Below the pieces are notes generated by a model. It did no database searches and had not been told where the DNA came from. It saw nothing but the letters and a program-made list of their open reading frames with translations. This document shows, in pieces, positions 238 through 53,439 of a DNA stretch of 64,000 nt; position 1 is the first letter of the stretch; the number at the start of each line of letters is the position of its first letter. Location of the stretch: the NCBI GenBank assembly GCA_963813155.1, contig CAWEYG010000005.1, positions 75,524-139,523 on the forward strand, given 5' to 3'. The stretch comes from an uncultured Acidobacteriota bacterium (GTDB lineage: Bacteria; Acidobacteriota; Thermoanaerobaculia; UBA5066; DATFVB01). The position numbers and the translations under genes were made by a program.

Positions 238-1593
238 ATGAGGCCCTCTCGAGCCGCCGACCTGGACACGATTGTCGCCGCGGCGACTCCGGCGGGGCGC
301 AGCGCCCTCGCCCTCGTGAGAATTTCCGGCGGCCGGGCGCTCGCGGTCCTTCGTTCCCTCGCGCCGGGGCTCGCCAGGACTCCGCGCGCGCGCGTCGCGA
401 GGCTCGTCGAGCTTCGCGATCCTCTCGGAAATCCGTTCGACCGGGCTCTCGCGACGTACTACCCCGCACCGAACTCGTATACCGGCGAGGACGTCGTCGA
501 GATCGCGATCCACGGAAACCCGATTCTCGTGCGGAAGCTTCTCGCCGCCTCGGCGGCCGCCGGCGCCCGGGAGGCGGAAGCCGGCGAATTTTCGCGGCGC
601 GCGTTTCTCCACGCGAAGCTCGACCTGACGGAAGCGGAATCGGTGCAGGGAGCTGATCGACGCGAAGACCGAAGCCGCGGCTCTCGGAGCTCTTCGCCGG
701 CTGTCGGGATCGCTCTCGGGGCGTCTGGGACGCGTGCGAGAGTCCCTCCTTCTCGCGGTGACGCTCTGGACCGCGTGCGATCGATTTTCCGGAACAGGCG
801 GGCGAGGAAGATCCCGGCGCGATCGGCGGGCATTCTCGGGGACGCGCATCGCGAGCTGTCGGACCTCCTCCGCTGCGCGGCCGCGGGCGCGCGCGTGTCT
901 TCCGGCGTGCGGGTCGCGATCGTCGGGCCGCCGAACGCCGGAAAGTCGACGATCTTCAACGCGATGCTCGGTCGCGACCGGGCGATCGTGACGCCGCACC
1001 CGGGAACGACGCGCGACACGCTCGAAGGAGAGATCGAGCTGGAAGGCCTTTCGATCGTCCTGATCGATACGGCGGGGCTTCGGGAGTCCGCGGAGCCGGT
1101 CGAGTCGGAGGGAATCGTCCGGGCGCGCGACGAGGTCGAGCGAGCAGACGTCGTGCTCTACGTCCGCGAGGCGGGGGAGCGGTGGACGGCGGACGATCGC
1201 GATTTCTGGAGCGGCCTTTCGGGGAGGCCCCGGCTGCTGGTCTCCAACAAGATCGACATTCGCCTTCCCGAGCCTTCGGAGCCCGGCGTTCGCGTGTGCG
1301 CGCTGTCGCCGGACGCTCCCGCGGTCCTTCGCGCGGCCGTCGCCGGGATCCTGCGCGAGGACTTCCACGCCGAGGCTTCGACGCAGGTCGTTTCCGGGCG
1401 CCAGCGGGATCTTCTCGATCGCGCCGAAAAGGAGGTTGTCCGGGCGCTCCGGTCCCTCGAGGGGCGCGCCCCGGCCGAAATCTCGGTTTCCCACGCCGAG
1501 GAAGCCCTTGGAATCCTGAGTGATCTCGTGGGGGAGACGACGACCGAGGACGCCCTCGACCGGCTCTTCTCCCGTTTCTGCATCGGCAAATGA
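238..1593 (+). CDS. mnmE: tRNA uridine-5-carboxymethylaminomethyl(34) synthesis GTPase MnmE. The full-length ORF is open, but residues ~140-195 are out of frame (three compensating single-base indels)
   Basis: N-terminus [23 protein letters not shown]-domain [27 protein letters not shown]...DTAGLRE, C-terminus CIGK*. In the middle the conserved MnmE residues sit in other frames: [20 protein letters not shown] in +1 and [13 protein letters not shown] in +2. Confidence 0.85.
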
Positions 1594-3503
1594 AGACCGA
1601 TTTCGACGTCGTCGTCGTTGGCGCCGGGCACGCGGGTTGCGAAGCGGCCCATGCGTGCGCTCGAAAGGGGCTCTCGACCCTGCTGTTGACCTTCTCGAGG
1701 CGGACGATCGCGAAGATGTCGTGCAACCCGGCGATCGGGGGAGTCGGGAAGGGGAATCTGGCGCGCGAGGTCGACGCGCTCGGCGGCCTGATGGGGACCG
1801 TCACCGACGCGGCCTGCATCCAGTTCAAGATGCTCAACCGCTCGCGCGGGCCGGCCGTGTGGGGCCCCCGTGCCCAGTGTGACAAAGAACTTTATAGCAC
1901 AAAGATGACGGCGCTCCTCGACGCCACCCCGCAACTCGCCATCCGCGAAGGGAGCGCTGTCGGATTCCTGGAGTCCGCGGGCCGGATCGGCGGCGTTCGG
2001 CTCGAGAGCGGCGAGACGATCCGGTCCCGGGCGGTCGTCGTCACGACGGGCACGTTTCTCGCGGCCCGGATGCACGTCGGCGCAGACCAGAGCGAGGGCG
2101 GACGCGTCGGCGAGCGCAGCGCGACCGGGCTCTCGGACGCGCTTCGGGCGCTCGGGCTCGAAATCGGAAGGTTTAAGACGGGGACTCCTCCGCGCGTCCG
2201 GCGCGACTCGGTGGAGACTTCGAGGTGCGAGCCGGCCCCCGGCGAGGATCCCCCGGTGCCGTTCTCGTTCCGGACGGCGAGGATCGACAATCCCCAGGTC
2301 CTCTGCTGGCTCACGGCGACAAACGAGCGGGTCCACGGAATCATCCGCGAGAATCTGGACCGGTCGCCGCTGTACGCCGGAAGAATCCGGGGGCTCGGTC
2401 CGCGCTACTGTCCGTCCATCGAGGACAAAGTCGTGAAGTTCGCCGAGAAGGATTTCCACCAGATTTTTCTCGAACCCGAGGGGCTCGCTTCCGAGGAGAT
2501 GTACATCAACGGTCTTTCGACATCGCTTCCCGAGGACGTCCAGCGCGCGATCCTGAAGGAAATCCCGGGCCTCGAAAACGCGGTGATGATTCGGCCCGGT
2601 TACGCCGTCGAATACGATTTCTGTCCTCCGCTTCAGTTGAGGACGACGCTCGAATGCCGCGACGTCCCCGGCCTGTACCTCGCGGGTCAGATCAACGGTA
2701 CATCCGGATACGAAGAGGCGGCCGCCCAGGGATTCTGGGCCGGAGCCAACGCGGCGCTCGCGCTGTCGGGGGAGGATCCTTTCCTTCCGCGCCGGGACGA
2801 AGCGTACTGCGCCGTCCTCGTCGACGACCTCGTGTCGCAGGGCGTCGAGGAGCCGTACCGGATGTTCACTTCGCGCGCCGAATATCGCCTCCTGCTCGGA
2901 GTCGACACGGTGCTTCCGCGACTGCTCGGACATGGAAAGAGGCTCGGGCTGATCTCCGACGTCGAGTACTCGGAGGGCCTGCGCGGGGAAGAGAAGATTC
3001 GGACGTCCGGCAACCGCCTGCGCGAGAAGCGGCTCGTTCCCGACCGTTCGACGCTCGACGAGCTGTTGGAGCGAGGCGCGCCGCCGATCTCTGCGCCCGT
3101 GTCGCTGTTCAAGTACCTCCAGAGGCAGGATGTCGATTGCGACATTCTCTCCCGCGTCGTCCCCGGGTTTCTCGACACTCTGAGCAGGGACGAGAAGTCG
3201 GTCCTCGAGTCGCGGGTGAAATACGAGGGATACATCGTGAAGGAGAAAGACCGGGCGCAGGCCCTTTCCCTCCTGTACGGGGAAAAGATCCCCGCCGATT
3301 TTCCCTACTCGGAGATCTCCGGACTCTCGCGGGAAGTCGTGGAGAAATGTTCGCTTCGGCGCCCGCAGACGCTCGCGGAGGCGGCGCGGATCCCCGGCGT
3401 CACGGCCGGGGCGATCGCTATACTCGCTTCCCATGTCTCCAAAGTCCAAAAGACGGCTCGACGAGAGGCGGGTTCGCGCGGCCCTCTCCCGAATCGCGCC
3501 TGA
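1590..3503 (+). CDS. mnmG: tRNA uridine-5-carboxymethylaminomethyl(34) synthesis enzyme MnmG (GidA)
   Basis: [27 protein letters not shown]...[10 protein letters not shown]; 637 aa; ATGA overlap with mnmE. Confidence 0.93.
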
Positions 3504-4083
3504 GCTCGGCCTCGTCCTCGACGAGCCCCGGATCGCGCTTCTCCTGGCGTTCCTGACGGAGCTGTCCGTCTGGGGGGAGGCGACGAATCTGACCGGGAAG
3601 CTCTCCGACGAAGACCTGGCCTTCCACTGTCTCGAATCCGCCTGCGGCGCGGACCTGCTGGAGCCGGGGGAGACCGTCCTCGACATCGGGTCCGGAGCCG
3701 GTTTTCCGGGGATTCCTCTCGCCATCTGGCGGGTCCGAATTACCCTGCTCGAACCCCGCGAGCGACGCGCCGCTTTCCTTCGGCACGTGCTGCGCGCCCT
3801 GGGTGCGGGCTTGAACGCCGAGGTTCGAGCCGATAGAGTGGAGAGACTCCCGGATCCCGCATTCGACTCGGCGACGGTACGCGCGGTCGGCGGTTTCGGA
3901 GCCACGGTGGGGGAGGCGAAATTCTTGAAGCCGAACGGGAAACTGCTGATCTGGACAAGCGATGCCGCACGGTACGAGCGGGATCTCGCTCCCGGGTTCC
4001 GCCTCGAAAAATCGCGCCCGATTCCGACCTCCCGAACCCGGGAAATCGCGGTCTTCCGGAAATGTTCCACGGGGAACATTTGA
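3433..4083 (+). CDS. rsmG: 16S rRNA (guanine527-N7)-methyltransferase RsmG (GidB)
   Basis: SAM motif [16 protein letters not shown]. The only in-frame start is ATG 3433, giving a 71-nt overlap with mnmG. Confidence 0.8.
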
Positions 4084-11948: not shown

Positions 11949-12056
11949 GGCTCGCTGGGCAGGAATCCGCCCCGCGTCGAATAGCGTACTTCTCCCGTGG
12001 CGTGAAGGGGATCCGGATCGTTCCGGTACCGGAGATTCGGGCGGCGTAGACGGGAG

Positions 12057-13659
12057 TCAGCGCTCCGACACGTCGTAGGCGCACATGCGCTCCCCGCACT
12101 TTTCGTTGTTGAGCCTCTTGCGGCTCCATTCTTCCAGCTCGGAGACCACGGCGTCGCGGTCCTTGTAACGCAGGACGAGCAGTTTCTCGCCGGTGCGGAG
12201 CCCCTTTGCGGAGTCGGTGATCACGGCCGGGCGGTCGGTGTAGTACTCGAACAGCGGTCCCTGGAACCACTGGTTCAAGGGCGTCTCGGAGATCGGAACG
12301 AAGACGAATCGGGAGAAGGTGTCGTTGCGGAGGGAAGAGAGGAACTCGATGTCCGATCGTGTTCCGAGCTGGTCGTCGAGCACCTGGGCGTACGCCGCTT
12401 TCGCGGCGGAGAGGAGATAGAACGCCAGGGCCGCGCAGCCGATAACGGTTCCGGCGAGCCCGGAGCGGCTGCGACCGAGAGACGCGGCGAAGCCGGCGAC
12501 GAGTGCTGCGATCGGCAGGCAGAACCAGTACTGCCAGTACAGATGAATGAAGCTTCCCTCCCGGAACGCGAAGAGCCAGACGCAGGCGACCGCAAGCGTC
12601 GTGAAAAAGAACACGGCCAGGCCGGGTCGGGGCGGCGCCGAAGAAACCGGAGCCCTTGCGCGAGAACGCCTTTTCCAGAGCCATGGCCCCGCGAGGGAGA
12701 GCGAGAGAGCCGCCACAATCCAGGGGACGGCCGGGGTGAAGTTGCTCTTCGCGTAGGTCCACTGGCGCGCCCACCATTCTGCGGCGGGAATCGACGCTGC
12801 CCGTTCGGCGAACGAGCGCGCCAGAGCGCCCCTTGCGCTCGCCCAGGTCCCACGGATGGAGATCAGGAGGCCGGCCAGCGCGGCGACTCCGCCCAAACCG
12901 GATAACGCCGTGGTCGTCAGAGCGCGCTTCGCTTTCGGATCGCCGGTTCGCAGCGAGGCCGCGAGGAGGTACGCAGCGATCGCACCCGCGAAGAGTGCGC
13001 CCGTCCAGTGCGCGAGGATCGCGAGGCCGACCGCAACGCCGTAGAACGCGAGCGCGCCCTTCGTCCCCCTGCGAAAATAGGCGGAAAGAGCGACGAACAG
13101 CCAGACGCCCGCGAGCATTCCGTCCGTCTCGAATTTCACGCAGGTCTGGTAAACGGCGAACAGCGGCAGACAGACGAGCGTGACGGCGCCGGCGAGCGAA
13201 GCCATCAGACTTCCCGTCGCCTGGAGAAAGATCGCGTAGGTGCCGGCGGCGGTCGCAAACGAAATCGCGAGATAGAACGCGCGAGCAGCCCACTCGGGGG
13301 TTCCCGTAATCTTCGTGAATTGCTGGAAAACGGTCTTCACCAGGAAGGGATGATCGGTGTAGTAGGTCGGATTCCCCCGCCGTTCGCCCCACCTCGAGTA
13401 GGCGTTGACCGTGACTCCGAACTGCGACCGGAGGTCCCCATTGCGGTTGCCGTTTCGTGCCCGGAACAGATAGTCGGCGTTGTCGTAGTTGTAATGCAGT
13501 CGGGTATCGAGAAGAGGAAGATTCAGTTTGTCTCCGCAGGTCGCGACCTGAAGGGCGAGGATCAACGCCAGGGAGAACGCGATTCCCGCGGCTTTCTTGC
13601 GTTCTCGATCCGGCCGCGCGAGGGCATGTTTCTCGTGGCGGATCGCCTTTCGCGTCACG
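12057..13659 (-). CDS. Integral membrane glycosyltransferase family 39-like (PMT/ArnT-like) protein; start inferred at a GTG that overlaps the upstream stop
   Basis: About 12 predicted TM segments (AFYLAISFATAAGTYAIFL, LAGVWLFVALSAYF, LYWQYWFCLPIAALVAGF, ...). The N-terminal 200 codons of ORF 12057-14309 overlap the S9 peptidase gene and look non-coding. Confidence 0.55.
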
Positions 13660-15793
13660 GCGCCTTCAGCCCCCCGATTTCCCTGAACAGAAACGCGAGG
13701 ATGTCGGAAGACTCCTCGATCTGCTTCGAGACGGACGTTTCGCTCCCCGTGTCGCCGCCTCCCCCGTGGCCCGCCTGCGTCTCGATCCGGATGAGGATCG
13801 GGGCGGTGCCGGCCTGAGCGGCCTGCAGCGTCGCCGCGTACTTGAACGAGTGCCCCGGCACGACGCGGTCGTCGTGGTCGGCCGTCGTGATCAGCACGGG
13901 CGGGTAGTGCGTGCCCTTTTTGATGTTGTGAAGCGGGGAGTAGCGAATCAACCAGGCGAACTGGTCCGGCTTGTCCGATCGCCCGTAGTCCGAAGCCCAC
14001 GCCCAACCGATCGTGAACAGGTGGTAGCGAAGCATGTCCATGACGCCGACCTGGGGCACCGCGGCGCCGAAGAGTTCCGGGTGCTGGTTCAGAGTCGCCC
14101 CAACGAGCAATCCTCCGTTGCTGCGGCCGTTGATGGCCAGCCTCTTCGGGTTCGTGTACCCCTTTGCAATCAGCCACTTCGCGGCCCAGGCAAAGTCGTC
14201 GAAGACGTTCTGCTTGTTGCCAAGCATCCCGGCGCGGTGCCACTCCTCCCCGTATTCGGACCCTCCCCGCAGGCACGCGTGGGCAAACAGGCCCCCCATT
14301 TCGATCCACGCAAGCGCTCGCGCCGAGTAGGCGGGAGTCATCGCGAGGTCGAACCCGCCGTAGCCGAAAAGCAGCGTGGGAATGTCGCCGGTCTGCTTGA
14401 GCCCCTTTCTCGAGACGAGGAACATCGGGATTTTCGTCCCATCTTTGGACGGGTAGAAGACCTCGCGCGTTTCGAAGCGCGCCGGATCGAACGGGACTTT
14501 CGGTTCGCGGAAGACGGAACTCTTCCCGGTCTCGAAATCGTAGCGATAGATGCGCACCGGATAGGAAAACGAGACGAAGGAGTAGAACGTCTCCTTGTCG
14601 GAACGCTTCCCGAAGAATCCGCCCGCCGCGCCGAGCGCCGGCAACTCGATCTCCTTCTCGGGCTTTCCGTCGAGCGAAAAGAGACGCACTCGGCTTGCGG
14701 CGTCGACGAGATACTGCGCCACGATCCGCTCGCCCACGATCGAGACGCCCTCGAGCGACGCGGCGGCCTGGGGCACGACGTCGTGAAGCGCAGGCTCTGC
14801 CTGCCCGGGCGAGACGTCCACCGAGACGACCCGTCCTCGCGGCGCGTCCTTGTCGGTCTGGAAGTAGAACGTGGATCCGACATCGTCGAGGAACTGGTAC
14901 CGGGCGTCGTAGCGATCGAAGAGCTTGACGAAATCGGAGCCGGGCTTTTCCAGATCGCGGTAGTAGAGCCGGTTTCGGGGATCCGTGCCCTCGCGAACGG
15001 TGAGAATGAGCCAGCGGCCGCCGTCGGTGACATCAGCGGAAAAGAACCAATCGGGCTTGTCGGGGCGCGCGAAAACGGGCTCGTCCCGCGACTGGGGCGT
15101 GCCGAGGCGGTGGAACCAGACCTTCTGGTTCTTGACGACCGACTGCAGCTCGCGGCCGGCCGGGGGCTCGTCGTACCGGGAGTAGTAAAAACCCCGGTTA
15201 TCCGGCGCCCATGACGCGCCGGAGAACTTCACCCATTTCAGGAGGTCGTCGGTGTCCTTCCCCGTTTCGATGTTTCGAACCTTCCACTCGTTCCAGTCCG
15301 AGCCCGCGGCGGACGTGCCGTAGGCGAGAAGGTTGCCGTCGTGCGAGACGGCGTACCCGGCGAGCGACACCGTTCCGTTCGAGGAAAGCGCGTTCGGGTC
15401 CAACAGGACCCGAGGCGCGCCATCGAGGGAATCCTGGACGAGGAGAACGCTCTGGTTCTGAAGACCGCTGTTGCGCGTAAAGAAGTAGCGGCTCGCCTCC
15501 CGAAACGGCGGAGAGTTGCGCTCGTAATTCCACAGTCCCTCGAGGGCTGAGCGGATTCGCTCCCGGCCCGGAATTTTCGAGAAGAAGGATCTCGTGAGCC
15601 GGTTCTCTGCCTCGATCCAGGCGCGGGTCGCGGGGGAGTCCGGGTTCTCGAGCTCCCGGTAGGGGTCGGCGATCTTCGTCCCGTGGTACTCGTCGACCTG
15701 TCGCGTCTTCGGCGCCTTCGGATAACGGGCGACGGTCGCTGCTGCGAGGCTGAGAGCAATGAGCGAAATGAACGAAGGGATCCAAATTCGCAT
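13655..15793 (-). CDS. S9A family prolyl oligopeptidase (prolyl endopeptidase) with signal peptide
   Basis: MRIWIPSFISLIALSLAAATVA signal peptide, beta-propeller, and C-terminal catalytic domain carrying the GGSNGGLLV serine motif. Confidence 0.85.
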   Translation of the reverse strand: MRIWIPSFISLIALSLAAATVARYPKAPKTRQVDEYHGTKIADPYRELENPDSPATRAWIEAENRLTRSFFSKIPGRERIRSALEGLWNYERNSPPFREASRYFFTRNSGLQNQSVLLVQDSLDGAPRVLLDPNALSSNGTVSLAGYAVSHDGNLLAYGTSAAGSDWNEWKVRNIETGKDTDDLLKWVKFSGASWAPDNRGFYYSRYDEPPAGRELQSVVKNQKVWFHRLGTPQSRDEPVFARPDKPDWFFSADVTDGGRWLILTVREGTDPRNRLYYRDLEKPGSDFVKLFDRYDARYQFLDDVGSTFYFQTDKDAPRGRVVSVDVSPGQAEPALHDVVPQAAASLEGVSIVGERIVAQYLVDAASRVRLFSLDGKPEKEIELPALGAAGGFFGKRSDKETFYSFVSFSYPVRIYRYDFETGKSSVFREPKVPFDPARFETREVFYPSKDGTKIPMFLVSRKGLKQTGDIPTLLFGYGGFDLAMTPAYSARALAWIEMGGLFAHACLRGGSEYGEEWHRAGMLGNKQNVFDDFAWAAKWLIAKGYTNPKRLAINGRSNGGLLVGATLNQHPELFGAAVPQVGVMDMLRYHLFTIGWAWASDYGRSDKPDQFAWLIRYSPLHNIKKGTHYPPVLITTADHDDRVVPGHSFKYAATLQAAQAGTAPILIRIETQAGHGGGGDTGSETSVSKQIEESSDILAFLFREIGGLKAP

Positions 15794-20135: not shown

Positions 20136-20816
20136 ATGGCCGACGTCTTCGAGGAACGCATCGCGCAGGAGGCGCACCTGTACGCGGACGTGTTTCTGCC
20201 GGACGGGGTCGCCCGCCCGCCGCTCGTGATCGCTCTCCACGGCTACGGCGGCGACAAGGTCTCGATGATGAAGCTCGCGCGCCGGATTTTCCGCGACGAG
20301 CTGGCGATCGCGAGCCTGCAGGGGCCGCATCCGCACGTGATCTACCCGAAGGATCGCTCTCAGCCTCTCGGGTTCGGGTTCGGCTGGGTGACGAACTTCC
20401 GGCCGGACGAGTCGATCGCTCTGCACCACGGAGCGGTCCTGGAGTTGCTGTCGCGCCTCGGCGCGCGCGGCGCGATCGATCCGGCTCGCGTTTTCCTGCT
20501 CGGCTTCTCCCAGTCGGTCGCCGTGAACTTTCGGTTCGCGTTCACCCATCCGGAGATCGTTGCCGGCGTCGTGGGGATCTGCGGCGGGATCCCGGGGGAC
20601 TGGGGTGCGGCGGACAAGTATCAAAGCGCGGCCTTCGACGTGCTCGTCGTCGGCGGAACCCGGGACGAGTTCTACCCGCCCGATCGGGTTCGCGCGAACG
20701 CGGAGAAGCTGCGCGAAAGGGCTCGCGCTGTCGAGACGCTGATTCTCGAGGCCGGCCACGAGATCCCGCCCGGATCACAGGAGCCGATCCGAGACTGGGT
20801 GACGCAGAGGCTCTGA
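20136..20816 (+). CDS. Alpha/beta hydrolase (phospholipase/carboxylesterase-dienelactone hydrolase family)
   Basis: PLVIALHGYGGD...LLGFSQS nucleophile elbow...GTRDEFYP...EAGHEI. Confidence 0.75.
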   Translation: MADVFEERIAQEAHLYADVFLPDGVARPPLVIALHGYGGDKVSMMKLARRIFRDELAIASLQGPHPHVIYPKDRSQPLGFGFGWVTNFRPDESIALHHGAVLELLSRLGARGAIDPARVFLLGFSQSVAVNFRFAFTHPEIVAGVVGICGGIPGDWGAADKYQSAAFDVLVVGGTRDEFYPPDRVRANAEKLRERARAVETLILEAGHEIPPGSQEPIRDWVTQRL

Positions 20817-21379
20817 TGGCGGCGCTTCTCTCCCATGCGGTCGCCGGCGCCGGAATCGCGGCGGCGCTCCGCCCGAGCGCGCGTCCCCCCGCTCGCTACT
20901 GGGCTCTCGCGGTCCTGTGCGCCGTCGTGCCGGACTTCGACATCGTCGTCGTGTGGATGGGCACGAACTACCTCGGGATGTTCGGCCACCGGGGTTTCAT
21001 GCACTCGATTTCCTTCGCCGCGGCCCTCGCGGCGGTGCTCTCGTACGGCGCGTTTTCGTCGCCGCGATGGCGGGAGCTGCGGTTCCGTGCCGGAATCGCG
21101 TTTTTCTGTCGCGGGCGTTTCGCATGGAATCCTCGACGCGATGATGAGCGCCGGAAGAGGAGTCGCGTTTTTCGCGCCGTTTTCCCCGTGCGCGTTTTCA
21201 TTTTCCGATCCGGCCGATTCGGGCATCTCCGCTGAGCAGACCACATCCTTCTTCGAGAGGGGGGAATCCGCGTTTCCGCGAGCGAAATCGCCTGGATCTG
21301 GGTGCCTGCCGTGCTGCTTTTCGTTCTGGCGGCCTGGTTCTGGAGGAGCCGCAAAATGAGAACTATCATCCCGGCATGA
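20816..21379 (+). pseudogene. DUF457 (YdjM-like) membrane-bound metal-dependent hydrolase, disrupted by at least 2 frameshifts
   Basis: Frame 2 GHRGFMHSISFAAALAAVLSYGAFSSPRW matches YdjM GHRGFTHSLL...VPEGW. Frame 0 VPESRFSVAGVSHGILDAMMSAGRGVAFFAPFS matches IPADALQGMVLGYLSHILADMLTPAGVPLLWP. The C-terminal TM helix EIAWIWVPAVLLFVLAAWFWRSRK is back in frame 2 and ends in an ATGA overlap with the next gene. Confidence 0.7.
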
Positions 21380-22915
21380 AAACCGCCGAGAAACCGAACC
21401 GCGTCGCTCCGCTCGAAATGGACCCCGAGGAGTTTCGCCGCCTCGGGCGGCGTGTCGTCGACCGCGTCGCCGATTTCCTCGCCTCGCTTCCCGAGCGACG
21501 GGTTACTCCCGGCGAGACGCCCCGGCAGCTTCGGAAGCTTCTCGGGGAAGGCCTCCCTGCCGCTGCGCGGAGCGAATGCCGAAGGATTGCTGGACGAGGC
21601 CGCGCAGCTTCTCATCGAACACTCGCTCTTCAACGGCCACGCCCGGTTCTGGGGCTACATCACTTCTTCGGCGGCGCCGATCGGAGCGCTCGCGGATCTC
21701 CTCGCTGCCGCCGTCAACCCGAACGTCGGCGCGTTCGGGCTCGCGCCGATCGCGACCGAGATCGAGCTTCAGACGATTCGCTGGATCGCGGAGATGATCG
21801 GTTTCCCGGCGGACTGTGGCGGCCTTCTCGTCTCGGGAGGCAACATGGCGAACTTCGTCGGCTTTCTCGCCGGCCGCCGCGCGAAGGCGCCGTGGGACAT
21901 CCGCGGATCGGGGAGCTCCGGCGGCCCGAAGATGTGCGCCTACGCGTCGGAAGAGACTCACACGTGGGTCAAGAAAGCGGCGGACCTCTTCGGCCTCGGG
22001 ACGGATTCTCTCCGGTGGATTCCCGTCGATTCCGGCTACCGGCTTCGCGTTGACGCCCTTCGAGCGGCGATCCGTGAAGACCGCGCCGCCGGATACGTCC
22101 CCTTCCTCGTGGTCGGGACGGCGGGGTCGGTTTCGACCGGCGCGATCGATCCGCTTCCGGAGATCGCCGCCGTCGCCTCCGAGGAGAACCTCTGGTTCCA
22201 CGTGGACGGCGCGTACGGCGGGCTGGCCGCGGTGCTTCCCGACGCGCCCGCCGCGCTGCGGGGCTTGTCGCTGGCCGACTCGGTCGCGGTCGACCCGCAC
22301 AAATGGCTCTACGCGCCCGTCGAAGCCGGATGCACGCTCGTGCGCGACAGGGCCGCCCTGGAGGACACGTTTGCCTATCGCCCCCCCTACTACCACTTCG
22401 AGGAAGAGGACGAGGCCGTGAACTTCTACGAGCGGGGGCCCCAGAACTCGCGGGGATTCCGCGCCCTGAAGGTCTGGCTCGGCCTTCGTCAGGCGGGGCG
22501 GGAAGGATACGAACGGATGATCGCCGACGACATCGCGCTCGCGCAGAGGCTCTTCGAGAAGGCGGCCGCGACCCCCGAGATCGAGACGTTCACGCGAGAC
22601 CTTTCGATCGCGACGTTCCGATTCGTGCCCGAGCGGCTTGCCGGAGCGGGGGCAGAGCACGGCGAATACCTCGATCAATTGAATACCGAGCTCCTCACGC
22701 GCCTCCAGAATGGCGGGGAAGCCTACGTCTCCAACGCCGTCCTCGGCGGGCGATTCGTGCTCCGCGCCTGCATCGTGAATTTCCGCACCCGATCGAGCGA
22801 TGTCGACGCGCTGCCGGATCTGGTGGTTCGGATCGGCCGCGAGGTCGACCGGGACCTCCGGGAGAAAGCGGAAGGCCGGCCCGGCATCCCCGAGGGAAGG
22901 AGAACGAATGGCTGA
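21376..22915 (+). pseudogene. Group II pyridoxal-dependent (aromatic-L-amino-acid/glutamate-type) decarboxylase with a +1 frameshift near 21547
   Basis: N-terminus MKTAEKPNRVAPLEMDPEEFRRLGRRVVDRVADFLASLPERRVTPGETPRQLRKLLGEG in frame 1; the rest (LPLRGANAEGLLDEAAQLLIEHSLFNGHARFWGY...DPHKWLYAPVEAGC...) in frame 2. Removing one G from the GGGG run at 21544-21547 restores a single ~510-aa ORF. Confidence 0.8.
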
Positions 22916-24080
22916 GCCGGTCTGGGCCGATCTGGGCTCCGTGGAAAAGCTGAAAGAAGAGCTGAAGAAGAAGCCGCTTGCGCAGCTGAAGGTCGGCCGC
23001 ACGCCGATCGCGCTGACGTACCGCAACGGGGAATTCTCCGCCGTCTCGGGAGTCTGCAACCATGTCGGCGGCCCGCTCGGCGAGGGGCGACTCGACGGGG
23101 ATTACATCGTCTGTCCGTGGCACAACTACAAGTTTCACTTTCGGACGGGCGAAGGGGAGCCGGGGTACGAGGAGGACAGGGTCCCGAGCTACGCGCTGCG
23201 GGTCGAAGGCGGTCGTCTCCTCGTCAACCTGACTCCGGCGACGCCGCGGCACAAGGTGATGCACGATCCGCATCCGCTCGAGAGGCCGTTGGCTCGGGCA
23301 GATGGCCCGACCCGCGTGCTCGGCATCTCGACGACGGCGATGGACACGGCGAACCCGCGCTATTCGACTTCCGACGCGCTTCTCGAAGCCGCGCTTGCGC
23401 ATGCCTCCGGCGGCCTCGGGGCGGAGACGAAGCTGCTGAGACTGACGGAGCTTTCTTTCCGGACCTGCGAGGGTTACTACTCGAAAAGCGCGCACGCCTG
23501 CACGTGGCCCTGCTCGATCACGCAGATGGACCCGAACGACCAGATGGACCAGGTGTACGACGCGATCATCTTCTGGGCCGACGTGATCCTCGTCTCGACG
23601 CCGATCCGCTGGGGCTCGGCGAGCTCGCTCTATTTCAAGATGGTCGAGCGGATGAACTGCGTCCAGAACCAGATCACTCTTCGCGACCGCGTGATGATTC
23701 GCAACAAGGTCGCGGCCTTCATCATCACGGGCGGACAGGACAACATCCAGGCGGTCGCGGGAGAAATGCTCGGTTTCTTCGCCGAGATCGGATGCCTCTT
23801 TCCGCAGTTCCCCTACATCGCGCACTCGCGGGGCTGGTCCGCCGAAGACATGGAAAACAACATCTCCTACGTCCAGAAGAGCAGGGCGCTGAAGGAGGGC
23901 GCGGAGTCGCTCGTCGAGAGAGCGGTCGCGTTTTCCCGGACGATCGTGGAAACGACGCCGGCGCCGGAAAAAGTCATGCGCGCCGGCCGAAAGGCCGACG
24001 GCCTCGACAACGCGGCGATGGGAGCGAACCTGCTCGCCGGGATGGCCGACGAAGGCGCCCCGAGGGACGAACCGAAGTGA
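22908..24080 (+). CDS. Rieske [2Fe-2S] domain fused to an NADPH-dependent FMN reductase / flavodoxin-like domain
   Basis: CNHVGGPLGEG...CPWHNYKF (Rieske Cys-X-His...Cys-X-X-His) in the first ~100 aa, then the flavodoxin-like fold LGISTTAMDTANPRYSTSDALL...IFWADVILVSTPIRWGSASSLYFKMVERMN...AAFIITGGQDN. Strong RBS GGGAAGGAGAACGAATG; 8-nt overlap with the decarboxylase. Confidence 0.7.
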   Translation: MAEPVWADLGSVEKLKEELKKKPLAQLKVGRTPIALTYRNGEFSAVSGVCNHVGGPLGEGRLDGDYIVCPWHNYKFHFRTGEGEPGYEEDRVPSYALRVEGGRLLVNLTPATPRHKVMHDPHPLERPLARADGPTRVLGISTTAMDTANPRYSTSDALLEAALAHASGGLGAETKLLRLTELSFRTCEGYYSKSAHACTWPCSITQMDPNDQMDQVYDAIIFWADVILVSTPIRWGSASSLYFKMVERMNCVQNQITLRDRVMIRNKVAAFIITGGQDNIQAVAGEMLGFFAEIGCLFPQFPYIAHSRGWSAEDMENNISYVQKSRALKEGAESLVERAVAFSRTIVETTPAPEKVMRAGRKADGLDNAAMGANLLAGMADEGAPRDEPK

Positions 24081-24946
24081 GCGGAGAGTGGCGGCGCCTC
24101 GGGGGCGTCGATCCGAAGGAGCTCTCGGCGGCGCGTCTCGATGTCCATTACGCCGCCCAGATCGTTTCCGCGATCGGCATCACGCACCTTCCCCACCAGC
24201 CCGACGACAGCCACACGAATCTGGAATGGATTCCTTCGAATGAAGCCTTCGGTGGGAACCTCGTTGGCGGATCGCGCGCGTTTCGAGGGGCGCTGCGGCC
24301 CGGCGACTTCACGCTGATGCTGCTCGACGAAGCGGGCCACCGGGAAAGAAAATTGCCTCTTTCGGAGAAGACCCTCGACGAAGGGTACGTCTGGATGGCG
24401 GAGGTGATCGCGGCGGAGACCGGAAAGCCGATGAAACCTCTGGAGCGGCCGGCGTACGAGCTCCCGGAGCACGCCGTCGCGGAGGGCTCTCGTTTTTCGG
24501 TGCCGATGGAGGAGTTCCGCGAGATTGGCCGCTGGTACGGAAACGCGGCCTCGCTCCTGATTTCCCTGATGGGAGAATTTTCCGAAGCCTCTTCCGTTCG
24601 CTGCTGGCCGCACCACTTCGACATCGCGATTCTCCTGACGCTCGGGGAGGGAAAGACGATCGGTCTCGGCCTCTCGCCCGGCGACGCGAGCTACGCGGAG
24701 CCGTACTGGTACGTCACGCCCTACCCGTATCCGAAGAACCCGGAATTGCCGCCGCTTCCGGAAAAGGGGCGCTGGCACACGGAGGGTTTCTTCGCGGCGG
24801 TCCTGACCGGATCGGATCTCCTGTCCGGGGATCTCGGCGACCCAGCGGCAGCGGTCGGAGATTTTTCTTCGCGCGGCCACTCCAAGGCTGTCGCCGCTTC
24901 CTGGAATAGGAAGGCTCTTCGCTACTTCTGGCCGGCTGTGACCTGA
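24077..24946 (+). CDS. Hypothetical protein (GTG start overlapping the previous stop)
   Basis: GTGA overlap at 24077-24080; 289-aa protein-like composition (WPHHFDIAILLTLGEGK..., PYWYVTPYPYPKNPELPPLPEKGRWH); no recognisable motifs. Confidence 0.5.
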   Translation: MSGEWRRLGGVDPKELSAARLDVHYAAQIVSAIGITHLPHQPDDSHTNLEWIPSNEAFGGNLVGGSRAFRGALRPGDFTLMLLDEAGHRERKLPLSEKTLDEGYVWMAEVIAAETGKPMKPLERPAYELPEHAVAEGSRFSVPMEEFREIGRWYGNAASLLISLMGEFSEASSVRCWPHHFDIAILLTLGEGKTIGLGLSPGDASYAEPYWYVTPYPYPKNPELPPLPEKGRWHTEGFFAAVLTGSDLLSGDLGDPAAAVGDFSSRGHSKAVAASWNRKALRYFWPAVT

Positions 24947-33063: not shown

Positions 33064-33073
33064 TTCGGATCTC

Positions 33074-45387: not shown

Positions 45388-46713
45388 TCTTCCGTGGAAA
45401 GATGATCCAGCGGGCCTGGCTTTCGCTCGCCGCGGCCTGGATTTTCGCCGCCGCGGTGCCGGCGACGGCGCAAACGCCGTCCGCGCCGAAACCCGGTCGT
45501 CCTGAAGGCTTCGCGGATCTTCGACTCCCGCACCGGGCGGATCTCCTCGCCGGGTCTCGTCGTCGTCGAGGGCGGGAAGATCGCCTCGGTCGGCGGCTCG
45601 GCGCCCGCCGGAGCGGAGGTCATCGACCTCGGGGACGCGACGCTCCTGCCCGGTTTCATCGACGCGCACGTTCATCTCACGGGCGAGTCGTCCGAAAACT
45701 GGTTTCGCGATTTTTACCAGCGGGTCATGCGGTTTCCGGCCGAGCAGGCGCACTACGCCGCGATGTACGCGAAGCGCACCCTCGAGGCGGGGTTCACGAC
45801 CGTCCGGGACGTCGGATCCGGCGACTACCTCGCGATGGGACTCCGCAACGCGATCGAAGCCGGCGTCGCGGAAGGGCCCCGGATGCTCGTCTCGAACTAC
45901 GCGATCGGTGCGACGGGCGGCCACGGCGACGGAGCGCCCTTTCCGCCCGACCGCGTGAAGCCCTCCGGCCCGATCGAGGGAGTCTGCAACGGACCGGCGG
46001 AGTGCCGCGAGGCCGTTCGATATCAGATCAAGTACGGCGCCGACGTCATCAAGTGCATGCCTTCGGGGGGCGTGCTCTCGATCTCGGACCCGGTCGACGC
46101 GCCCGAGCTCACGCAGGAGGAAATGAACGCGATCGTCTCCGAATCGCACGCCTGGGGGCGAAAGGTCGCCGCGCACTGCCACGGCGACGCCGCCGCGAAG
46201 ATCGCGATCGCGGCCGGCGTGGATTCGATCGAGCACGGCTCCTTCCTGAAACCGGACACGCTCGCCCTCATGAAGCAGAAAGGGACCTACCTGGTGCCGA
46301 CGCTCTACGCCGGCGAATGGGTCGGATCCCATGCGGAGAAGTTTCCCCCCGCGATCGCGGTCAAGGCGCGCGCGGCGTCGGCCGCGATGATGGCGATGTT
46401 TCGCGAGGCGGTGCGCCAGGGCGTGAAGATCGCGCTCGGCACGGACGCGGCCGTCGAGCCGCACGGCGGGAACGCCCGGGAGTTCGTCTTGATGGTCGAG
46501 GGAGGGCTTTCGCCGGCGGCGGCTCTGCAGGCGGGAACGGTCGGAGGCGCGGACCTCCTGGGGATCACGGCGATCGCGGGGTCGCTCGAGGCGGGGAAAT
46601 CCGCCGACGTCGTGGCCGTCCCGGGAAACCCCGTGGCCGACATCCGCGCGACCGGAAAAGTCTTTTTCGTGATGAAAGAGGGAAAGGTCGTCAAGAGCTC
46701 GCGGCCTTCCTGA
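45384..46713 (+). pseudogene. Amidohydrolase family (imidazolonepropionase/Xaa-Pro dipeptidase-like) with signal peptide; +1 frameshift near 45488
   Basis: Signal [30 protein letters not shown] in frame 0; the rest in frame 1 (VVLKASRIFDSRTGRISSPGLVVVEGGKIASVGG...LLPGFIDAHVHL...HCHGD...). An extra C in AAACCC at ~45488 explains the shift. Confidence 0.8.
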
Positions 46714-47138: not shown

Positions 47139-47761
47139 CGCGCCCTTCCCGCTCGGAATCGGTTCGCGAACATTACGCGCGCCACGCGGCGGACTACGAC
47201 CGCCGCTGGCTCTCGTACGTCGAAGCGACGACGCGCGGGACGATCGCCCGAATGCCGGCTCGCCCGGGCGGCCGGATTCTCGACGTCGGTTGCGGAACGG
47301 GCGTGTTGCTCGGCCGGCTCTCGGCTTCCGGAGACGGAAAGCGGCTCTTCGGGATCGATCCCGTGCCGGAAATGCTCGACGTCGCGCGCCGGCGCCTGCC
47401 GTCCGGCGTCGAGTTGCGCGAGGCCTCCGTCGAACGAATTCCGTATCCCGACGAAATCTTCGACATCGTGGTCTCGTGCAGCGTGTTTCACTATCTCGGA
47501 AATCCTCTCGGGGCCCTCGAGGAAATGAAGCGAGTCCTCGCGCCGGGCGGAACCGTCGTCGTCACCGACTGGTGCGCCGATTACCTCGTCTGCCGGATCT
47601 GCGAAGCGTACCTGTCCGCCTTCCGGCACGTGCGCTACTCGGTCTATCGGGCGAAAGAGTGGGCCTCGCTCCTGGCGCGCGCCGGATTCGCCGATGTCGT
47701 CGTGCACCCGTACAAGATCAGTTGGCTCTGGGGCGTGATGACGGCGACGGCGAGGAAGTAA
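47135..47761 (+). CDS. Class I SAM-dependent methyltransferase (start unclear: no ATG/GTG/TTG; possible CTG start or frameshift-fusion with the upstream gene)
   Basis: Motif I ILDVGCGTGVLLGRL, ...DIVVSCSVFHYL...; the conserved N-terminus TRPSRSESVREHYARHAADYDRRW begins at a CTG that overlaps the upstream TGA. Confidence 0.6.
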   Translation: MTRPSRSESVREHYARHAADYDRRWLSYVEATTRGTIARMPARPGGRILDVGCGTGVLLGRLSASGDGKRLFGIDPVPEMLDVARRRLPSGVELREASVERIPYPDEIFDIVVSCSVFHYLGNPLGALEEMKRVLAPGGTVVVTDWCADYLVCRICEAYLSAFRHVRYSVYRAKEWASLLARAGFADVVVHPYKISWLWGVMTATARK

Positions 47762-47783: not shown

Positions 47784-48962
47784 TCACACCACCCCGAACT
47801 TCTTGCCCACCTTCCGAAAGGCTTCGACGGCGAACGCGAGGTCTTTCTCCGAGTGCGCGGCCGAGACCTGGCAGCGCAGTCTTGCGTGGCCCTGCGGGAC
47901 GACGGGGAAGCCGAAGCCGGCGACGTAGACGCCTTCGTCGAAGAGCGCGGCCGACATCGCGAGCGCCTTCGCCGTGTCGCCGACGATCACCGGCACGATC
48001 GGATGGATCCCTTCGGGAATCGTGAACCCGGCGTTTTTGATCTCCTTGCGGAAATACATCGAATTCGAGCGCAGTTTCGCGACGGGCGAGGGGTCTTCCA
48101 TCAGCATGCGGAACGCCTCGAGCGATCCGCCCGCGACGGCCGGCGGAAGCGAGTTGGAAAAGAGCGACGTCCGCGACCGCTGGCGCAGCATTTCGACGAG
48201 CGGGGCCGGTCCCGTGACGAATCCCCCGGCCGCCGAGCCCATCGCCTTCCCGAGCGTGCCGGTCGTCACGGGGATCTTTCCGTGGATGCCTTCCTCTTCG
48301 GCGGTCCCGCGCCCGGTCTTCCCGAGAACGCCCGTCGCGTGGGAGTCGTCGACGACAAAGAGAGCGCCGTACTTTTCGGAGATCGAAAGCAGCTTCGGAA
48401 GGTCGGCGAGCTCGCCTTCCATCGAGAACACGCCGTCGGTCACCATCATCTTGAATCGGGACGTCGAGTCTTCCGAGATCATTTTTTCGTACGCGGCGGC
48501 ATCGGAGTGCGGCACCTTGAAGCGCTTGGCCTTGCAGAGACGGATGCCGTCGATGATCGACGCGTGGTTGAGCTCGTCGGAATAGAGGCCGTCGGCTTCT
48601 TCGAGAACGGCGGGGAAGAGCCCTTCGTTCGCGTTCCAGCACGACATGTACAGGATCGTGTCCTGCGTCTGGAAGAACGACGAGATCGCCTCTTCGAGGT
48701 CCTTGTGGAGCTGTTCGGTCCCGCAGATGAAGCGCACGGAGCCGAGCCCCGCGCCCCACCGGTCGATCGCCTTTTTCTGGGCCTCGCGGATCCGGGGATG
48801 GTTCGCGAAACCGAGGTAATTGTTGGAGGTCAGCATGAGGACGTCGCGTCCCTCGACCTTCACGTGTGCGTCCTGCGCCGATTCGAGCACGCGCTCGACC
48901 TTCAGGGTCTTGTTCGCCGCCAGTTTCGCGAGCTCTCCCGCGAGGTGTTCGATCAATTGCAT
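47784..48962 (-). CDS. kbl: Glycine C-acetyltransferase (2-amino-3-ketobutyrate CoA ligase)
   Basis: 392 aa, PLP-dependent; LTSNNYLGFANHP...DELNHASIIDG...FSMEGE...VDDSHATGVLG...TGTLGKAMG. Confidence 0.9.
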   Translation of the reverse strand: MQLIEHLAGELAKLAANKTLKVERVLESAQDAHVKVEGRDVLMLTSNNYLGFANHPRIREAQKKAIDRWGAGLGSVRFICGTEQLHKDLEEAISSFFQTQDTILYMSCWNANEGLFPAVLEEADGLYSDELNHASIIDGIRLCKAKRFKVPHSDAAAYEKMISEDSTSRFKMMVTDGVFSMEGELADLPKLLSISEKYGALFVVDDSHATGVLGKTGRGTAEEEGIHGKIPVTTGTLGKAMGSAAGGFVTGPAPLVEMLRQRSRTSLFSNSLPPAVAGGSLEAFRMLMEDPSPVAKLRSNSMYFRKEIKNAGFTIPEGIHPIVPVIVGDTAKALAMSAALFDEGVYVAGFGFPVVPQGHARLRCQVSAAHSEKDLAFAVEAFRKVGKKFGVV

Positions 48963-50229: not shown

Positions 50230-50339
50230 GGGCGGGTGGTGTGGGGCGAGACTCCCTTTTGCCGCTCGCGACGCGGGCATAGCAAAGTCATCAGGCTCGC
50301 GGCGAGCGGAAAAGAGGAGCGAGTTCCGCGACAGGACCC
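50230..50339 (+). repeat. Copy B of the ~110-nt structured intergenic repeat
   Basis: GGGCGGGTGGTGTGGGGCGAGACTCCCTTTTGCCGCTCGCGACGCGGGCATAGCAAAGTCATCAGGCTCGCGGCGAGCGGAAAAGAGGAGCGAGTTCCGCGACAGGACCC. Confidence 0.8.
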
Positions 50340-51467: not shown

Positions 51468-52827
51468 TCAGTCACCCGCTTCATCGTCCCGCACGAAGGC
51501 TCCGGCATCGTCGCGGTCGGCGACGTCCACCGGGTGAACGTACTTTTCGACGTGCCGGCGCGTGTCGCCGGCCTTCAGTTTTTCGAACAGGAAGTCGAAT
51601 TTCGCCTCGAGATCCCGCGAGATCGCGTCTCTCGTGCCGACCGGGAGCGTCCACAGGGCCTCCTTGAAGGGACCGAGCGCTTTCTTTCGCGCTTTGTAGA
51701 GAAACTGTTCCTGCGTTTCGCCGGTCTTGCGCTCGTCGGCGGCGTTGTCGTAGAGCCATCGGTAGATCGTCTCTCGCAGGAGGCCGGGAAGAGCCGGGTG
51801 GTCGAGGATCATGTTCTGGAACCCCGTCGCGAGGTGGATCTCGGCGGCCTCCGCTCGCGGGAAAAGGCCGAAATCGCTCTCCGGCAGCGTCGAGGCGCCG
51901 TGCTGGACCGCGCCCGCGAGGCCGAACTCTTCGCGGGCGATCCGCGAGATCGCTTCGATCGCCGAAAAATCCACCGACATTTTCTTCAGGCTTCCGTCGG
52001 GCGCGACCATTCCGCCGTGGGCGGAACCTGTTTGAATGGACACCTTCGCGATTCCCTTCTCCCCGGAGAGGTTTCCCGAGTAGCCGCGCATGTAGGCGCG
52101 GAATTCCTCCGGGGTCGAGTTCTCCTTGCCCACCTCGCCGATCTCCCCTCCGATGGAAATGGCGACCTCCCGGGGCTGGTGGCGGCGGATATAGCGGGTG
52201 AAGTGGGCGCAATTCTCGTAATTCGGCCGTTGCTGCTCGTCGACCGTGGGCTTCGAGAGATCGACGAGCGTCGACGTGTCGATGTCGATCTGATAGAAAC
52301 GCGCGGCGATCGCCTCCCGGATGAGATCCTCGATCGCTTTCACTTCCCTCGCGGGATCCGCCTTCATTTTCTTCGCGTTCGTCTGGAAGTGATCGCCCTG
52401 CAGGAATACCGGGCCGGTCCATTCTTCGCGCAGGGCGGCGGCCAGGATGACCGCGGTGTATTCGGCGGGCCGCTGGTCGGTGTACCCGATCTCGCTGCGG
52501 GCGATCTCGAAGATGAAGGCTCCCGCCGAGATCCTCTCGGGCGGTTCGAAAGACGGCGCGCGCGCAGTCGTAAGTGAGAGCCCGGAGGTTGAGCGCAGGA
52601 ACGGTGAACCCGCCGATCTCGCCCCGGCCGCGGGCCTCGTAGAGGGGCAGGATCGACGCCGGAAGGATGCCGCGATCGGCCGCGAGACGGCGGATGCGGG
52701 CGCGCGCGGCCCGCTTTTCCGCTTCCCCTTCGAAGACGGCGCTCCAGACCAGGTTGTCGACCTCGCGGGCGCCATAGCGGAGCTCGCCGACGGAAAGCGG
52801 TTCCTTCGACGCCTCGATCGTGCTCAT
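51468..52827 (-). pseudogene. Class II (metal-dependent) ketose-bisphosphate aldolase family protein with one frameshift (extra G near 52530)
   Basis: N-terminal 85 codons MSTIEASKEPLSVGELRYGA...GEIGGFTVPALNLRALTYDCARAVFRTARE lie in one frame; ISAGAFIFEIARSEIGYTDQRP...PVFLQGDHFQ...IQTGSAHGG... lie in the +1 frame. The ATG at 52827 has a GGAGGA RBS. Confidence 0.7.
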
Positions 52828-52889
52828 CGTGCTCCTCCGATTCCGGATTCTATCCGCCCGGGAAAACGGGCGCTTGCCGGCGGCCGGAT

Positions 52890-53439
52890 TCAGGGCTTGC
52901 GGAAATTCTCCTCGCTCCACGGAATCGAGACGTTGATCGTGTACTCGCCGCGGCGCTTTCCGGAGAGACGGCGCGAGATCGCGAAAGTCCCGGCCGGGGT
53001 GATCTCGGCAGGAGTGATCGTGACGCTCTGCTCGTCGCCGCTTTCCATCGAGATGATTTCCGTCGACAGGTTCTTCAGGTTCAGGCGCAGGGGATGCTCG
53101 AGTCCCGCCAATCCGATGACTTCCGCCGCGAACGAGGTTGAGTCGCCCGTGTGGATGATCGGGCGCGGCGGGGTCAGTCGAAGGCCGACGGTGCGAAAAT
53201 CCCCCGAAACCCTGTCGGTACCGTTCTGGAATTCGATGCGGGTTTTGCCGATCGGGTCCTTCGGAACGTCGAAAATGCACGCACGCGGCGATTCCGCGAC
53301 GATATGAGCCGTCAGGCCGCCGATCGTGACTGAAGTTTTCGTGAGATCGCCGTCGAACGGGCCGACAACGAGCGCCCGGTTGAAGACGAGGCCCTCGCTT
53401 CGGCAGGATGAAGCTCGGGCTGTTGAGAAGCGTCGTCAC
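52890..53439 (-). pseudogene. Hypothetical beta-rich protein; GTG start overlaps the upstream stop (GTGA), and a frameshift sits in a GGG run ~50 nt later
   Basis: Frame f1 VTTLLNSPSFILPKRG joins frame f2 LVFNRALVVGPFDGDLTKTSVTIGGLTAHIVAESPRACIFDVPKDPIGKTRIEFQNGTDRVSGDFRTVGLRLTPPRPIIHTGDSTSFAAEVIGLAGLEHPLRLNLKNLSTEIISMESGDEQ...NFRKP* when one G is removed. Confidence 0.5.

Follow-up and report, generated by a model that had tools for sequence, protein, structure and literature searches.

Introduction

Indels that remain in Nanopore consensus sequences lead to frameshifted gene calls, and polishing is required for bins below about 40x (PMC9262707). When measured by IDEEL, the consensus indels of long-read data (Nanopore or PacBio CLR) split conserved genes, are private to one assembly and can be repaired with a single base. 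In these respects they resemble the frameshifts described here, which occur in a window of 64,000 nucleotides (the whole stretch of DNA that was analysed) from an uncultured Acidobacteriota bacterium of a Thermoanaerobaculia-like soil lineage. However, the events in the window lie outside homopolymers of four or more bases, are strongly biased towards insertion and form tight patches instead of an even spread over the contig.

Two biological systems also share part of this pattern. In decaying genomes, such as those of Mycobacterium leprae and recent endosymbionts, many conserved genes are interrupted by frameshifts, as in the window, although the affected genes of the window carry no nonsense mutations, no signs of relaxed selection and no lesions common to relatives. 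Programmed frameshifting of the prfB type, from which a +1 shift direction is known, matches the window in that direction but not otherwise, as here there is no conserved site, single genes carry several shifts and the shifts are not conserved in relatives.

Seven of the approximately 55 genes in the window are hit by frame-breaking single-base indels (n = 18). Judged from the sequences, these frameshifts are very probably assembly or consensus indel errors rather than gene loss, and would derive from an unpolished long-read consensus of patchy, poor quality.

Single-base indels break the frames of seven genes

Frame breaks were placed by frameshift-aware alignment of proteins to DNA. The indels are distributed over mnmE (three), ydjM (three), genes for an amino-acid decarboxylase (one), a 276-aa hypothetical protein (two), an amidohydrolase (one) and a class II aldolase (one), and a gene for a 321-aa hypothetical protein (seven). 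An earlier sequence-only reading had proposed that at least six conserved genes were disrupted by nine or more events, and in all six we find indels at, or a few bases from, the proposed sites. Its impression of recurrence was correct, but it undercounted the events, of which we find about twice as many as were listed. It also took all events to be of one kind, which they are not, since a single -1 deletion accompanies the 17 +1 insertions (binomial p = 1.4e-4 for a 17:1 bias). Nanopore consensus tends towards deletions, and such a strong insertion bias, unexpected from that platform, speaks against the artefact reading.

The events form clusters, which occupy a few stretches of 50-450 nt. Ten of the 17 gaps between events are shorter than 200 nt, compared with a maximum of seven in 200,000 uniform simulations. 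None of the affected genes has a nonsense codon in its coding region when aligned, with frameshifts allowed, to the proteins of relatives, and larger deletions are likewise missing from these genes. For genes in the stretches that relatives do not cover (12060-16341, 31588-38570 and 54346-55293), a Pfam check revealed no split domains. Tracking of GC3 phase was also tried as a caller of the shifted genome, and was rejected because it is too noisy below about 60 nt and mis-called positions 834, 1513 and 21553.

The affected genes and their repair

The gene for the tRNA modification GTPase MnmE (238..1593, plus strand) presents itself as an open reading frame, but codons ~137-199 are out of frame, and the frame stays open only because three shifts sum to +3. 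Alignment of the DNA to that of relative L001 places the first +1 at ~648 (646..650), where the window reads GCAGGGAG and the relative GC-TGGAG. The second lies outside any homopolymer at ~776 (775..777; CGCGTGCG versus CGC-TTCG) and the third at ~833 (832..834; CATTCT versus CA-TCT), so that the three sites previously suggested for this gene are all present. When metagenomes were scanned for close relatives of mnmE, all homologues obtained had an identity of only 32-41%, but they served as independent frame references. Alignments to these distant MnmE homologues (n = 10) call for the same three +1 shifts, with the first at 646-649 in every one of the ten. Deleting the three bases extends the match to Pfam MnmE_helical from profile positions 72-211 (49 bits) to 1-211 (115 bits). 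Taken at face value, mnmE is an open ORF of 451 codons with about 62 wrong residues, an error to which checks on ORF length are blind.

Three +1 insertions, where at least two had been anticipated, interrupt the gene for a YdjM/DUF457 membrane protein (20816..21379, plus strand). The first, at ~21107 (21105..21108), is assigned the same position by the L081 and L088 proteins in frameshift-aware alignments, and alignment to relatives locates the others at ~21189 (21186..21191) and ~21238 (21235..21245), the latter a net +1 whose exact base is ambiguous. Homologues are intact in L081 (190 aa) and L088 (198 aa), and repair lengthens the Pfam YdjM match from profile positions 3-89 (59 bits) to 3-170 (95 bits). 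The stop codon of the repaired gene overlaps the start codon of the adjoining decarboxylase gene as ATGA.

In this gene, which encodes a PLP-dependent amino-acid decarboxylase (21376..22915, plus strand), the 58 N-terminal codons lie in a different frame. The responsible +1, at ~21550-21553 (21548..21553; GAAGGCCTC versus GAA-GGCTC or GAA-ACGTC), is absent in L081, L082 and L088. A shift had been predicted within the GGGG at 21544-21547; the shift exists but lies outside this run, which is equally long in L082, so that the extra base is downstream of it. The repaired protein has 512 aa, and its homologues have 511-524 aa.

The gene for the 276-aa hypothetical protein (24077..24909, plus strand) was absent from the earlier list. 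It carries two +1 insertions near its 3' end, at ~24833 (24831..24834) and ~24878 (24876..24879; GCGGCCAC versus GCGG-CGC), both of which are required by the L081 and L088 proteins (at 24833 and 24879), and its conserved C-terminus (...SATQRQRSEIFLRAA / LQGCRRFLE*) is split across three frames.

The secreted amidohydrolase (45402..46713, plus strand) has its signal peptide and start codon out of frame with the catalytic domain. A tblastn search with the L083 amidohydrolase protein aligns residues 1-31 in frame 3 but residues 35-439 in frame 1, and in the main frame the first possible start codon comes not before 45727. Here a single +1 at 45488..45493 (AAACCCGGTCG), in which the extra base is C or G, agrees with the shift earlier put at about 45488. 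Similarly, the shift proposed near 52530 in the class II aldolase-like gene (51468..52827, minus strand) is recovered as a +1 at ~52531 (52528..52536, minus strand), which places the N-terminal 97 codons in another frame and is absent in L084, L085 and L086. Intact aldolase homologues of 452 aa are present in L084 and L086, and repair extends the match to Pfam F_bP_aldolase from profile positions 46-241 (34 bits) to 13-241 (44 bits).

The most heavily affected gene encodes a conserved hypothetical protein of 321 aa with a signal-peptide-like N-terminus (52890..53860, minus strand). Its homologues, which are 318-325 aa long, extend over both ORF fragments, and comparison with L087, which is 96.7% identical in nucleotide sequence, reveals seven single-base indels. 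Alignment to L087 places six +1 insertions at plus-strand coordinates 53397, 53447, 53461, 53496, 53516 and 53521 (53397..53521), and a -1 deletion at 53793 (53792..53794; TT versus TTT in L087) parts the signal-peptide start from the remaining gene. The 141 nt from 53390 to 53530 hold six indels and no mismatches relative to L087, as against 43 mismatches and one indel in the other ~1,400 positions. At 53397, 53447 and 53496 the window reads as the L087-like allele plus one base of the L086-like allele. The region 52890-53439 had previously been described as frameshifted at a GGG; frameshifted it is, but by seven events rather than one.

Repair consists of removing a base at each +1 site and supplying one at the -1 site. 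All seven genes then yield full-length ORFs, of 450, 186, 512, 276, 436, 452 and 321 aa in the order given above, and the four repaired proteins that were scanned regain their Pfam coverage.

Comparison with relatives

For every one of the 18 sites, at least one relative spans the position and does not have the indel, and none of the indels recurs in any relative, including those of 82-97% nucleotide identity. Apart from L087, nucleotide identities to the window are about 87-92% for L001, L081 and L084, 92.5% for L082, 91.5% for L086 and about 78-88% for L083 and L088. The same disruptions in related genomes, which the sequence-only reading had named as one of the findings that would count against it, were looked for and are absent at all 18 sites.

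In four affected genes, the codon changes that occur in the window alone comprise 96 synonymous and 18 nonsynonymous substitutions, which is no worse than the 83:24 of the intact closest relatives. A ratio of 96:18 implies that the affected genes have been under selection essentially until the present, and this codon comparison indicates that the branch leading to the window remains under purifying selection. The earlier suggestion that the frameshifted pseudogenes are probably intact is therefore upheld by indels that are private, repairable, insertion-biased and clustered in genes on which selection appears to persist.

Several candidate events were rejected in the course of these comparisons. 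Two apparent +1 insertions at 23343 and 23377 were called relative to the Rieske protein of L088, but the single frame of the window encodes a genuine FMN-reductase N-terminus, and thus L088 and L081 are broken there and the window is not. Likewise, the insertions that seemed to lie at 47452 and 47548 when the window was compared with L084 are deletions in L084, because no shift is needed to align the L083 protein with the window. The scaffold of L088, which is not known to be long-read, itself carries the frame break in the Rieske-FMN reductase gene, showing that relatives are not error-free as references.

Homopolymer runs and the origin of the patches

The sequence-only reading had assigned the indels to G/C homopolymers. 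In the best alignments none of the 18 events falls inside a run of four or more bases, and runs of three are touched by at most two, namely the event at ~648 and, under one placement, an event at ~45492. The window contains 157 runs of at least five bases and about 700 of at least four, none of which is associated with a frameshift. About 8 of the 17 insertions double a single neighbouring base, and about 7 match neither neighbour, as in CTC[G]CTT, GGT[C]AAC and AGA[C]TCC. The events do not concentrate in homopolymers, and this counts against the homopolymer sub-type of error, not against an artefact generally. The avoidance of long homopolymers also differs from textbook long-read error and, as such, is a point against the artefact reading.

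Classical miscalling of homopolymer length, in which the basecaller or consensus over-counts short G/C runs systematically and genome-wide, is an unlikely source of these indels. Some events do extend runs (GG to GGG at ~648, CC or G at ~45490), several are 2-5 nt away from runs of four or more, the readable inserted bases in the alignments are mostly G or C, and comparison of the closest genome to the window with a Logan contig of the same strain reveals C6 versus C5. However, no event lies inside the longer runs and the long runs are untouched, the frequency of neighbour-doubling is close to what chance would give for bases inserted at random, and the excess of G and C fits a GC content of 65%. 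Moreover, a systematic bias would spread its errors evenly, whereas six events were observed within 125 nt. The proposal of uncorrected long-read basecalling errors thus stands, with strong support, as far as an artefact is concerned, but its homopolymer-length mechanism is unsupported, as the events avoid real homopolymers.

If the frameshifts are artefacts, the source of the window would be an unpolished long-read metagenome assembly, with a platform that we infer from the sister MAG described below and from the length of the contig (279,785 nt, with a protein 100% identical to one of the window). Short patches of poor consensus would contain wrongly inserted single bases and, in one case, a dropped base, and these errors would be scattered insertions in ordinary sequence rather than miscalls of run length. 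The resulting shifts of frame would make seven normal, selected genes mimic pseudogenes. Such patches could arise where reads were too few or where reads of diverged strains that occur together were piled up, either of which may be the exact cause. Twelve of the 18 events fall where local divergence from at least one relative reaches or exceeds the 90th percentile. The error stretches thus lie mostly among the most strain-variable parts of genes, which suggests a low number of reads or mixed strains. Artefacts of strain collapse or mixed haplotypes may be comparable, in that most clusters of the window lie in strain-variable stretches and several inserted bases make the window look like the union of two alleles that occur in relatives, whereas divergence is average around the sites in mnmE and in the amidohydrolase and aldolase genes. 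Based on these patterns, poor local consensus, possibly with mixed strains, fits better than the homopolymer mechanism.

Biological alternatives

That the indels are real mutations, reflecting either recent pseudogenisation in a decaying or mutator lineage or genuine compensated frameshifts in mnmE and ydjM, seems to us highly improbable. The indels are present in the sequence as given, pseudogenes are possible in uncultured lineages, and the +3 sums in mnmE and ydjM keep the downstream frame. Yet nothing is common to relatives even at 96.7% identity, nonsense codons and larger deletions are lacking, six indels stand beside zero substitutions, and the 96:18 ratio reveals no relaxation of selection relative to the 83:24 of relatives. 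Bacterial mutation is deletion-biased, and the 17:1 bias towards insertion runs in the opposite direction. The five other genes are uncompensated, and seven simultaneous, very recent hits of such a spectrum are implausible.

The +3 sums of mnmE and ydjM, considered alone, could hint at selected compensation and in that sense speak against the artefact reading. Selected compensation was rejected, as two of seven genes with sums that are a multiple of three is the chance level. Between the shifts, the segments continue to specify the conserved ancestral peptide, although in shifted frames, and therefore no new peptide has been selected.

We give slightly less credence still to real insertions from an insertion-biased local hypermutation, caused, for instance, by error-prone repair or by recombination among diverged co-resident strains that leaves mosaic alleles with +1 junctions. 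If this were true, the contig would record a real and very young burst of inactivation that struck several genes in the population. Decoding by programmed +1 ribosomal frameshifting or transcriptional slippage can be dismissed with near certainty, because although all shifts but one are +1, the sites have no slippery motif in common and each has a context of its own, no long A/T runs that would permit slippage are present, relatives encode the same proteins in a single frame, and six shifts within 125 nt are not efficiently decodable.

Consequences for annotation and the sister MAG

The frameshifts of the window, read as consensus errors, are not a biological feature, and their consequences are practical. 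Annotation at face value would produce seven false pseudogenes or truncated proteins and a silently garbled mnmE. Filters that rely on long homopolymers or coding density alone would miss patchy, insertion-biased errors in ordinary sequence, many of which fall in strain-variable regions.

The closest genome to the window is MFD00822.bin.2.149, a sister MAG within the GTDB collection of one genome per species. The catalogue to which it is assigned by name was built from Nanopore data by Flye followed by a single Medaka round, and short reads were not used for polishing (PMC12313526). Like the window, this Nanopore-only Flye and Medaka assembly bears the same indel signature, at different sites. 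A comparison with the Logan contig of its own strain shows no substitutions and one indel in 2.7 kb. Where the window is intact, the sister MAG has 22 private frameshifts (19 insertions and 3 deletions), which affect atpD, parA, parB, rsmG, kbl and an RND pump gene among others. The closest genome therefore carries even more errors than the window, including in ATP synthase beta, ParA and ParB.

Frameshifts in seven genes

Within the GTDB species set, the genome closest to the window (65% GC) is "uncultured Acidobacteriota bacterium MFD00822.bin.2.149", a MAG (contig_116074, 300,670 nt) with 90% protein identity in MnmG and ~87-92% nucleotide identity across syntenic blocks. The other relatives were found via protein searches and include a JGI contig (L082, 92.5% nucleotide identity), two scaffolds of ENA assembly ERZ1759591 (L083 and L088, ~78-88%), and the Logan contigs L086 (91.5%), L087 (96.7%) and L085, the last representing the same strain as L084, a stretch of the MFD contig. 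DNA alignments were combined with protein-to-DNA alignments from a frameshift-tolerant aligner that we wrote, in which every relative's called proteins were run against the window and also in the reverse direction.

These comparisons reveal 18 frame-breaking single-base events in seven genes, comprising 17 insertions and one deletion. All six genes named as interrupted in the sequence-only reading are indeed frameshifted at or near the positions it gave, but that reading undercounted the events, which number seven in one gene, and missed a seventh gene altogether. The observation is therefore real and under-counted, and it is not a biological feature.

As given, mnmE (238-1593) forms a single 451-codon ORF in which codons ~137-199 are out of frame owing to three +1 insertions (~648, ~776, ~833), and the Pfam MnmE_helical model matches only over profile positions 72-211. 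DNA alignment shows that L001, another stretch of the MFD contig, lacks the three extra bases. Moreover, all ten MnmE homologues from unrelated metagenomes (32-41% identity) put a +1 shift at 646-649, nine of the ten put a second at 761-776, and in eight the three +1 shifts can be told apart.

In ydjM (20816-21379), two independent relatives yield identical positions for three +1 insertions (21107, ~21189 and ~21238). The decarboxylase gene carries one extra base within 21548-21553 that is missing in L082, L088 and the MFD stretch L081; the adjacent GGGG run is equally long in L082 and so is not the site of this event. The amidohydrolase shift, at AAACCCGG near 45490, leaves the start codon and signal peptide one frame off the catalytic domain, and the aldolase gene is shifted at ~52531, unlike its counterparts in L084, L085 and L086. 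A 321-aa gene spans 52890-53860, and what had been read as a hypothetical gene at 52890-53439 is its 3' portion; relative to L087 the full gene has six single-base insertions (53397, 53447, 53461, 53496, 53516 and 53521) and one deletion (53793). The seventh gene encodes a 276-aa hypothetical protein (24077-24909) and has +1 insertions at ~24833 and ~24878. Among genes that no relative covers, the Pfam check found complete domains and no split domain.

Signatures of probable assembly error

None of the 18 events is common to any relative, L087 included. Insertions outnumber deletions 17 to 1 (p = 1.4e-4), and no nonsense codons were found in the affected genes. Between 53390 and 53530 there are six insertions and zero substitutions; the remaining alignment holds 43 substitutions and one indel. 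Such a lesion spectrum is unnatural. The events are also clustered, with 10 of the 17 inter-event gaps shorter than 200 nt, compared to a maximum of seven in uniform simulations (n = 200,000).

Codon changes were polarised with two relatives per gene. Across four of the genes (decarboxylase, aldolase, amidohydrolase and 321-aa), the window has 96 private synonymous codon changes against 18 nonsynonymous ones, and the same ratio in the intact closest relatives is 83:24. On the window's own branch, selection has been retained at a level equal to or better than that in the closest relatives.

Removing one base wherever there is a +1 insertion and restoring a T at position 53793 produces uninterrupted ORFs of 450, 186, 512, 276, 436, 452 and 321 aa, which match the lengths of their homologues. 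Scores rise from 49 to 115 bits for MnmE_helical (now profile positions 1-211), from 59 to 95 bits for YdjM (3-170 of 176), and from 34 to 44 bits for F_bP_aldolase, while the repaired ydjM stop and the decarboxylase start overlap as ATGA. The earlier proposal of probably intact genes disrupted by assembly error is thus well supported by events that are private, insertion-biased and clustered, by retained selection and by successful repair, and we consider it very likely to be correct.

Alternative explanations

The specific artefact first proposed, miscounting of homopolymer length, is not favoured by the data and we regard it as improbable. By best alignment, none of the 18 events falls in a run of four or more, and none of the ~700 such runs in the window (157 of five or more) is tied to a frameshift. 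The best resolved cluster is that of the six insertions seen against L087, where the inserted bases are G between CTC and CTT, A between GGG and ACC (doubling the A), G between TTT and GCT (doubling the G), C between GGT and AAC, G between CCG and AGA (doubling the G), and C between AGA and TCC. Of these inserted bases, half differ from both flanking bases, and the G/C excess among inserted bases is due to base composition. R10.4 resolves homopolymers up to ~10 (PMC9262707), which agrees with long runs being correct in the window. The error is not of the homopolymer-length kind.

Genuine recent pseudogenisation, or frameshifts that compensate one another, is more doubtful still, as it would need seven simultaneous, very recent, insertion-only hits that left no substitution signal. 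Programmed recoding can be discounted in practice, given the lack of a shared motif among the sites, the lack of conservation of the frameshifts, and the presence of six shifts inside 125 nt.

Possible origin of the insertions

The errors are patchily distributed. Stretches at or above the 90th percentile of local divergence from at least one relative hold 12 of the 18 events: three in the middle of ydjM, one at the decarboxylase site, two at the C-terminus of the 276-aa protein and six in the variable central part of the 321-aa gene. Local divergence is average at the mnmE, amidohydrolase and aldolase sites. At 53397, 53447 and 53496 the window reads as the L087-type allele to which a single base typical of the L086-type allele has been added; TCAACCAGG, for instance, combines TCAACC-GG with T-AACCAGG. 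A consensus or polishing step fed by a pile-up of diverged co-occurring strains, or by very few reads, could generate such combinations. The contigs of this lineage (0.28-1.2 Mb) point to long-read assembly, given that contigs are 1.6-23 kb in every relative not known to be assembled in this way.

The closest genome carries the same signature

Across ~45 kb compared (L001, L081 and L084; CAVZCI010000003.1), at least 22 frameshifts private to MFD00822.bin.2.149 (19 insertions, 3 deletions) fall at places where the window has intact ORFs. They affect mnmE (four), rsmG (two), a Rieske-FMN reductase gene (seven), an RND pump (three), a methyltransferase (two), and parA, parB, atpD and kbl (47787-48962 in the window; one each). 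This genome shows the same error signature as the window, at other sites.

Its MFD isolate name assigns this MAG to a catalogue of Nanopore assemblies made with Flye (--meta, --nano-hq) and polished once with Medaka and never with short reads (PMC12313526). The same group described frameshifted gene calls resulting from Nanopore consensus indels, and a need for short-read polishing of bins below ~40x (PMC9262707). Over 2.7 kb, the MAG differs from a same-strain Logan contig by zero substitutions and a single C6/C5 indel.

The practical value of these findings is as a warning for annotation and quality control, above all for mnmE, which is silently garbled while its ORF remains open, and also for the error-laden closest relative, which comes from the GTDB one-genome-per-species collection.

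Other features of the window

Apparent window shifts in the Rieske-FMN reductase gene and in the methyltransferase gene (47372-47758) were rejected, as the errors sit in the relatives. The former (22905-24077, +) is a single intact ORF in which a Rieske [2Fe-2S] domain and an NADPH-dependent FMN reductase domain, both identified by Pfam, are fused. In L088 a frame break causes the two halves to be called as separate genes, and in L081 seven indels break up the gene.

Neither strand has more than a weak or ambiguous coding signal at 33750-34260, between an ORF (33060-34385, -) that has no Pfam match and an AAT/TPR gene starting at 34261. This stretch lies outside the relatives' coverage, and so a further frameshift may be present within it.

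A dispersed intergenic repeat of ~108 nt is present in three copies with 81-83% identity (19954-20059, -; 50234-50339, -; 59953-60060, +), with matching copies in the MFD contig (L081 21324-21495 and L001 20623-20748). Its predicted fold is a long, imperfect hairpin (-66.6 kcal/mol, z = -5.4); having no Rfam match, it resembles either a REP/MITE-like element or a structured RNA. The sole Rfam match in the window at the gathering threshold is a tRNA gene (62593-62674, +; RF00005, 51 bits).

The region at 11975-16325 encodes a PMT_2-type glycosyltransferase, an S9 prolyl oligopeptidase and a GNAT acetyltransferase. Except for 62 matching nt (15852-15913), it gives way in the MFD contig to a shorter and largely non-homologous segment of ~1.1 kb (L081 3793-4943). 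L088 has the peptidase and GNAT genes, with an NmrA-like gene where the window has the glycosyltransferase, and the difference is a local indel or rearrangement among relatives.
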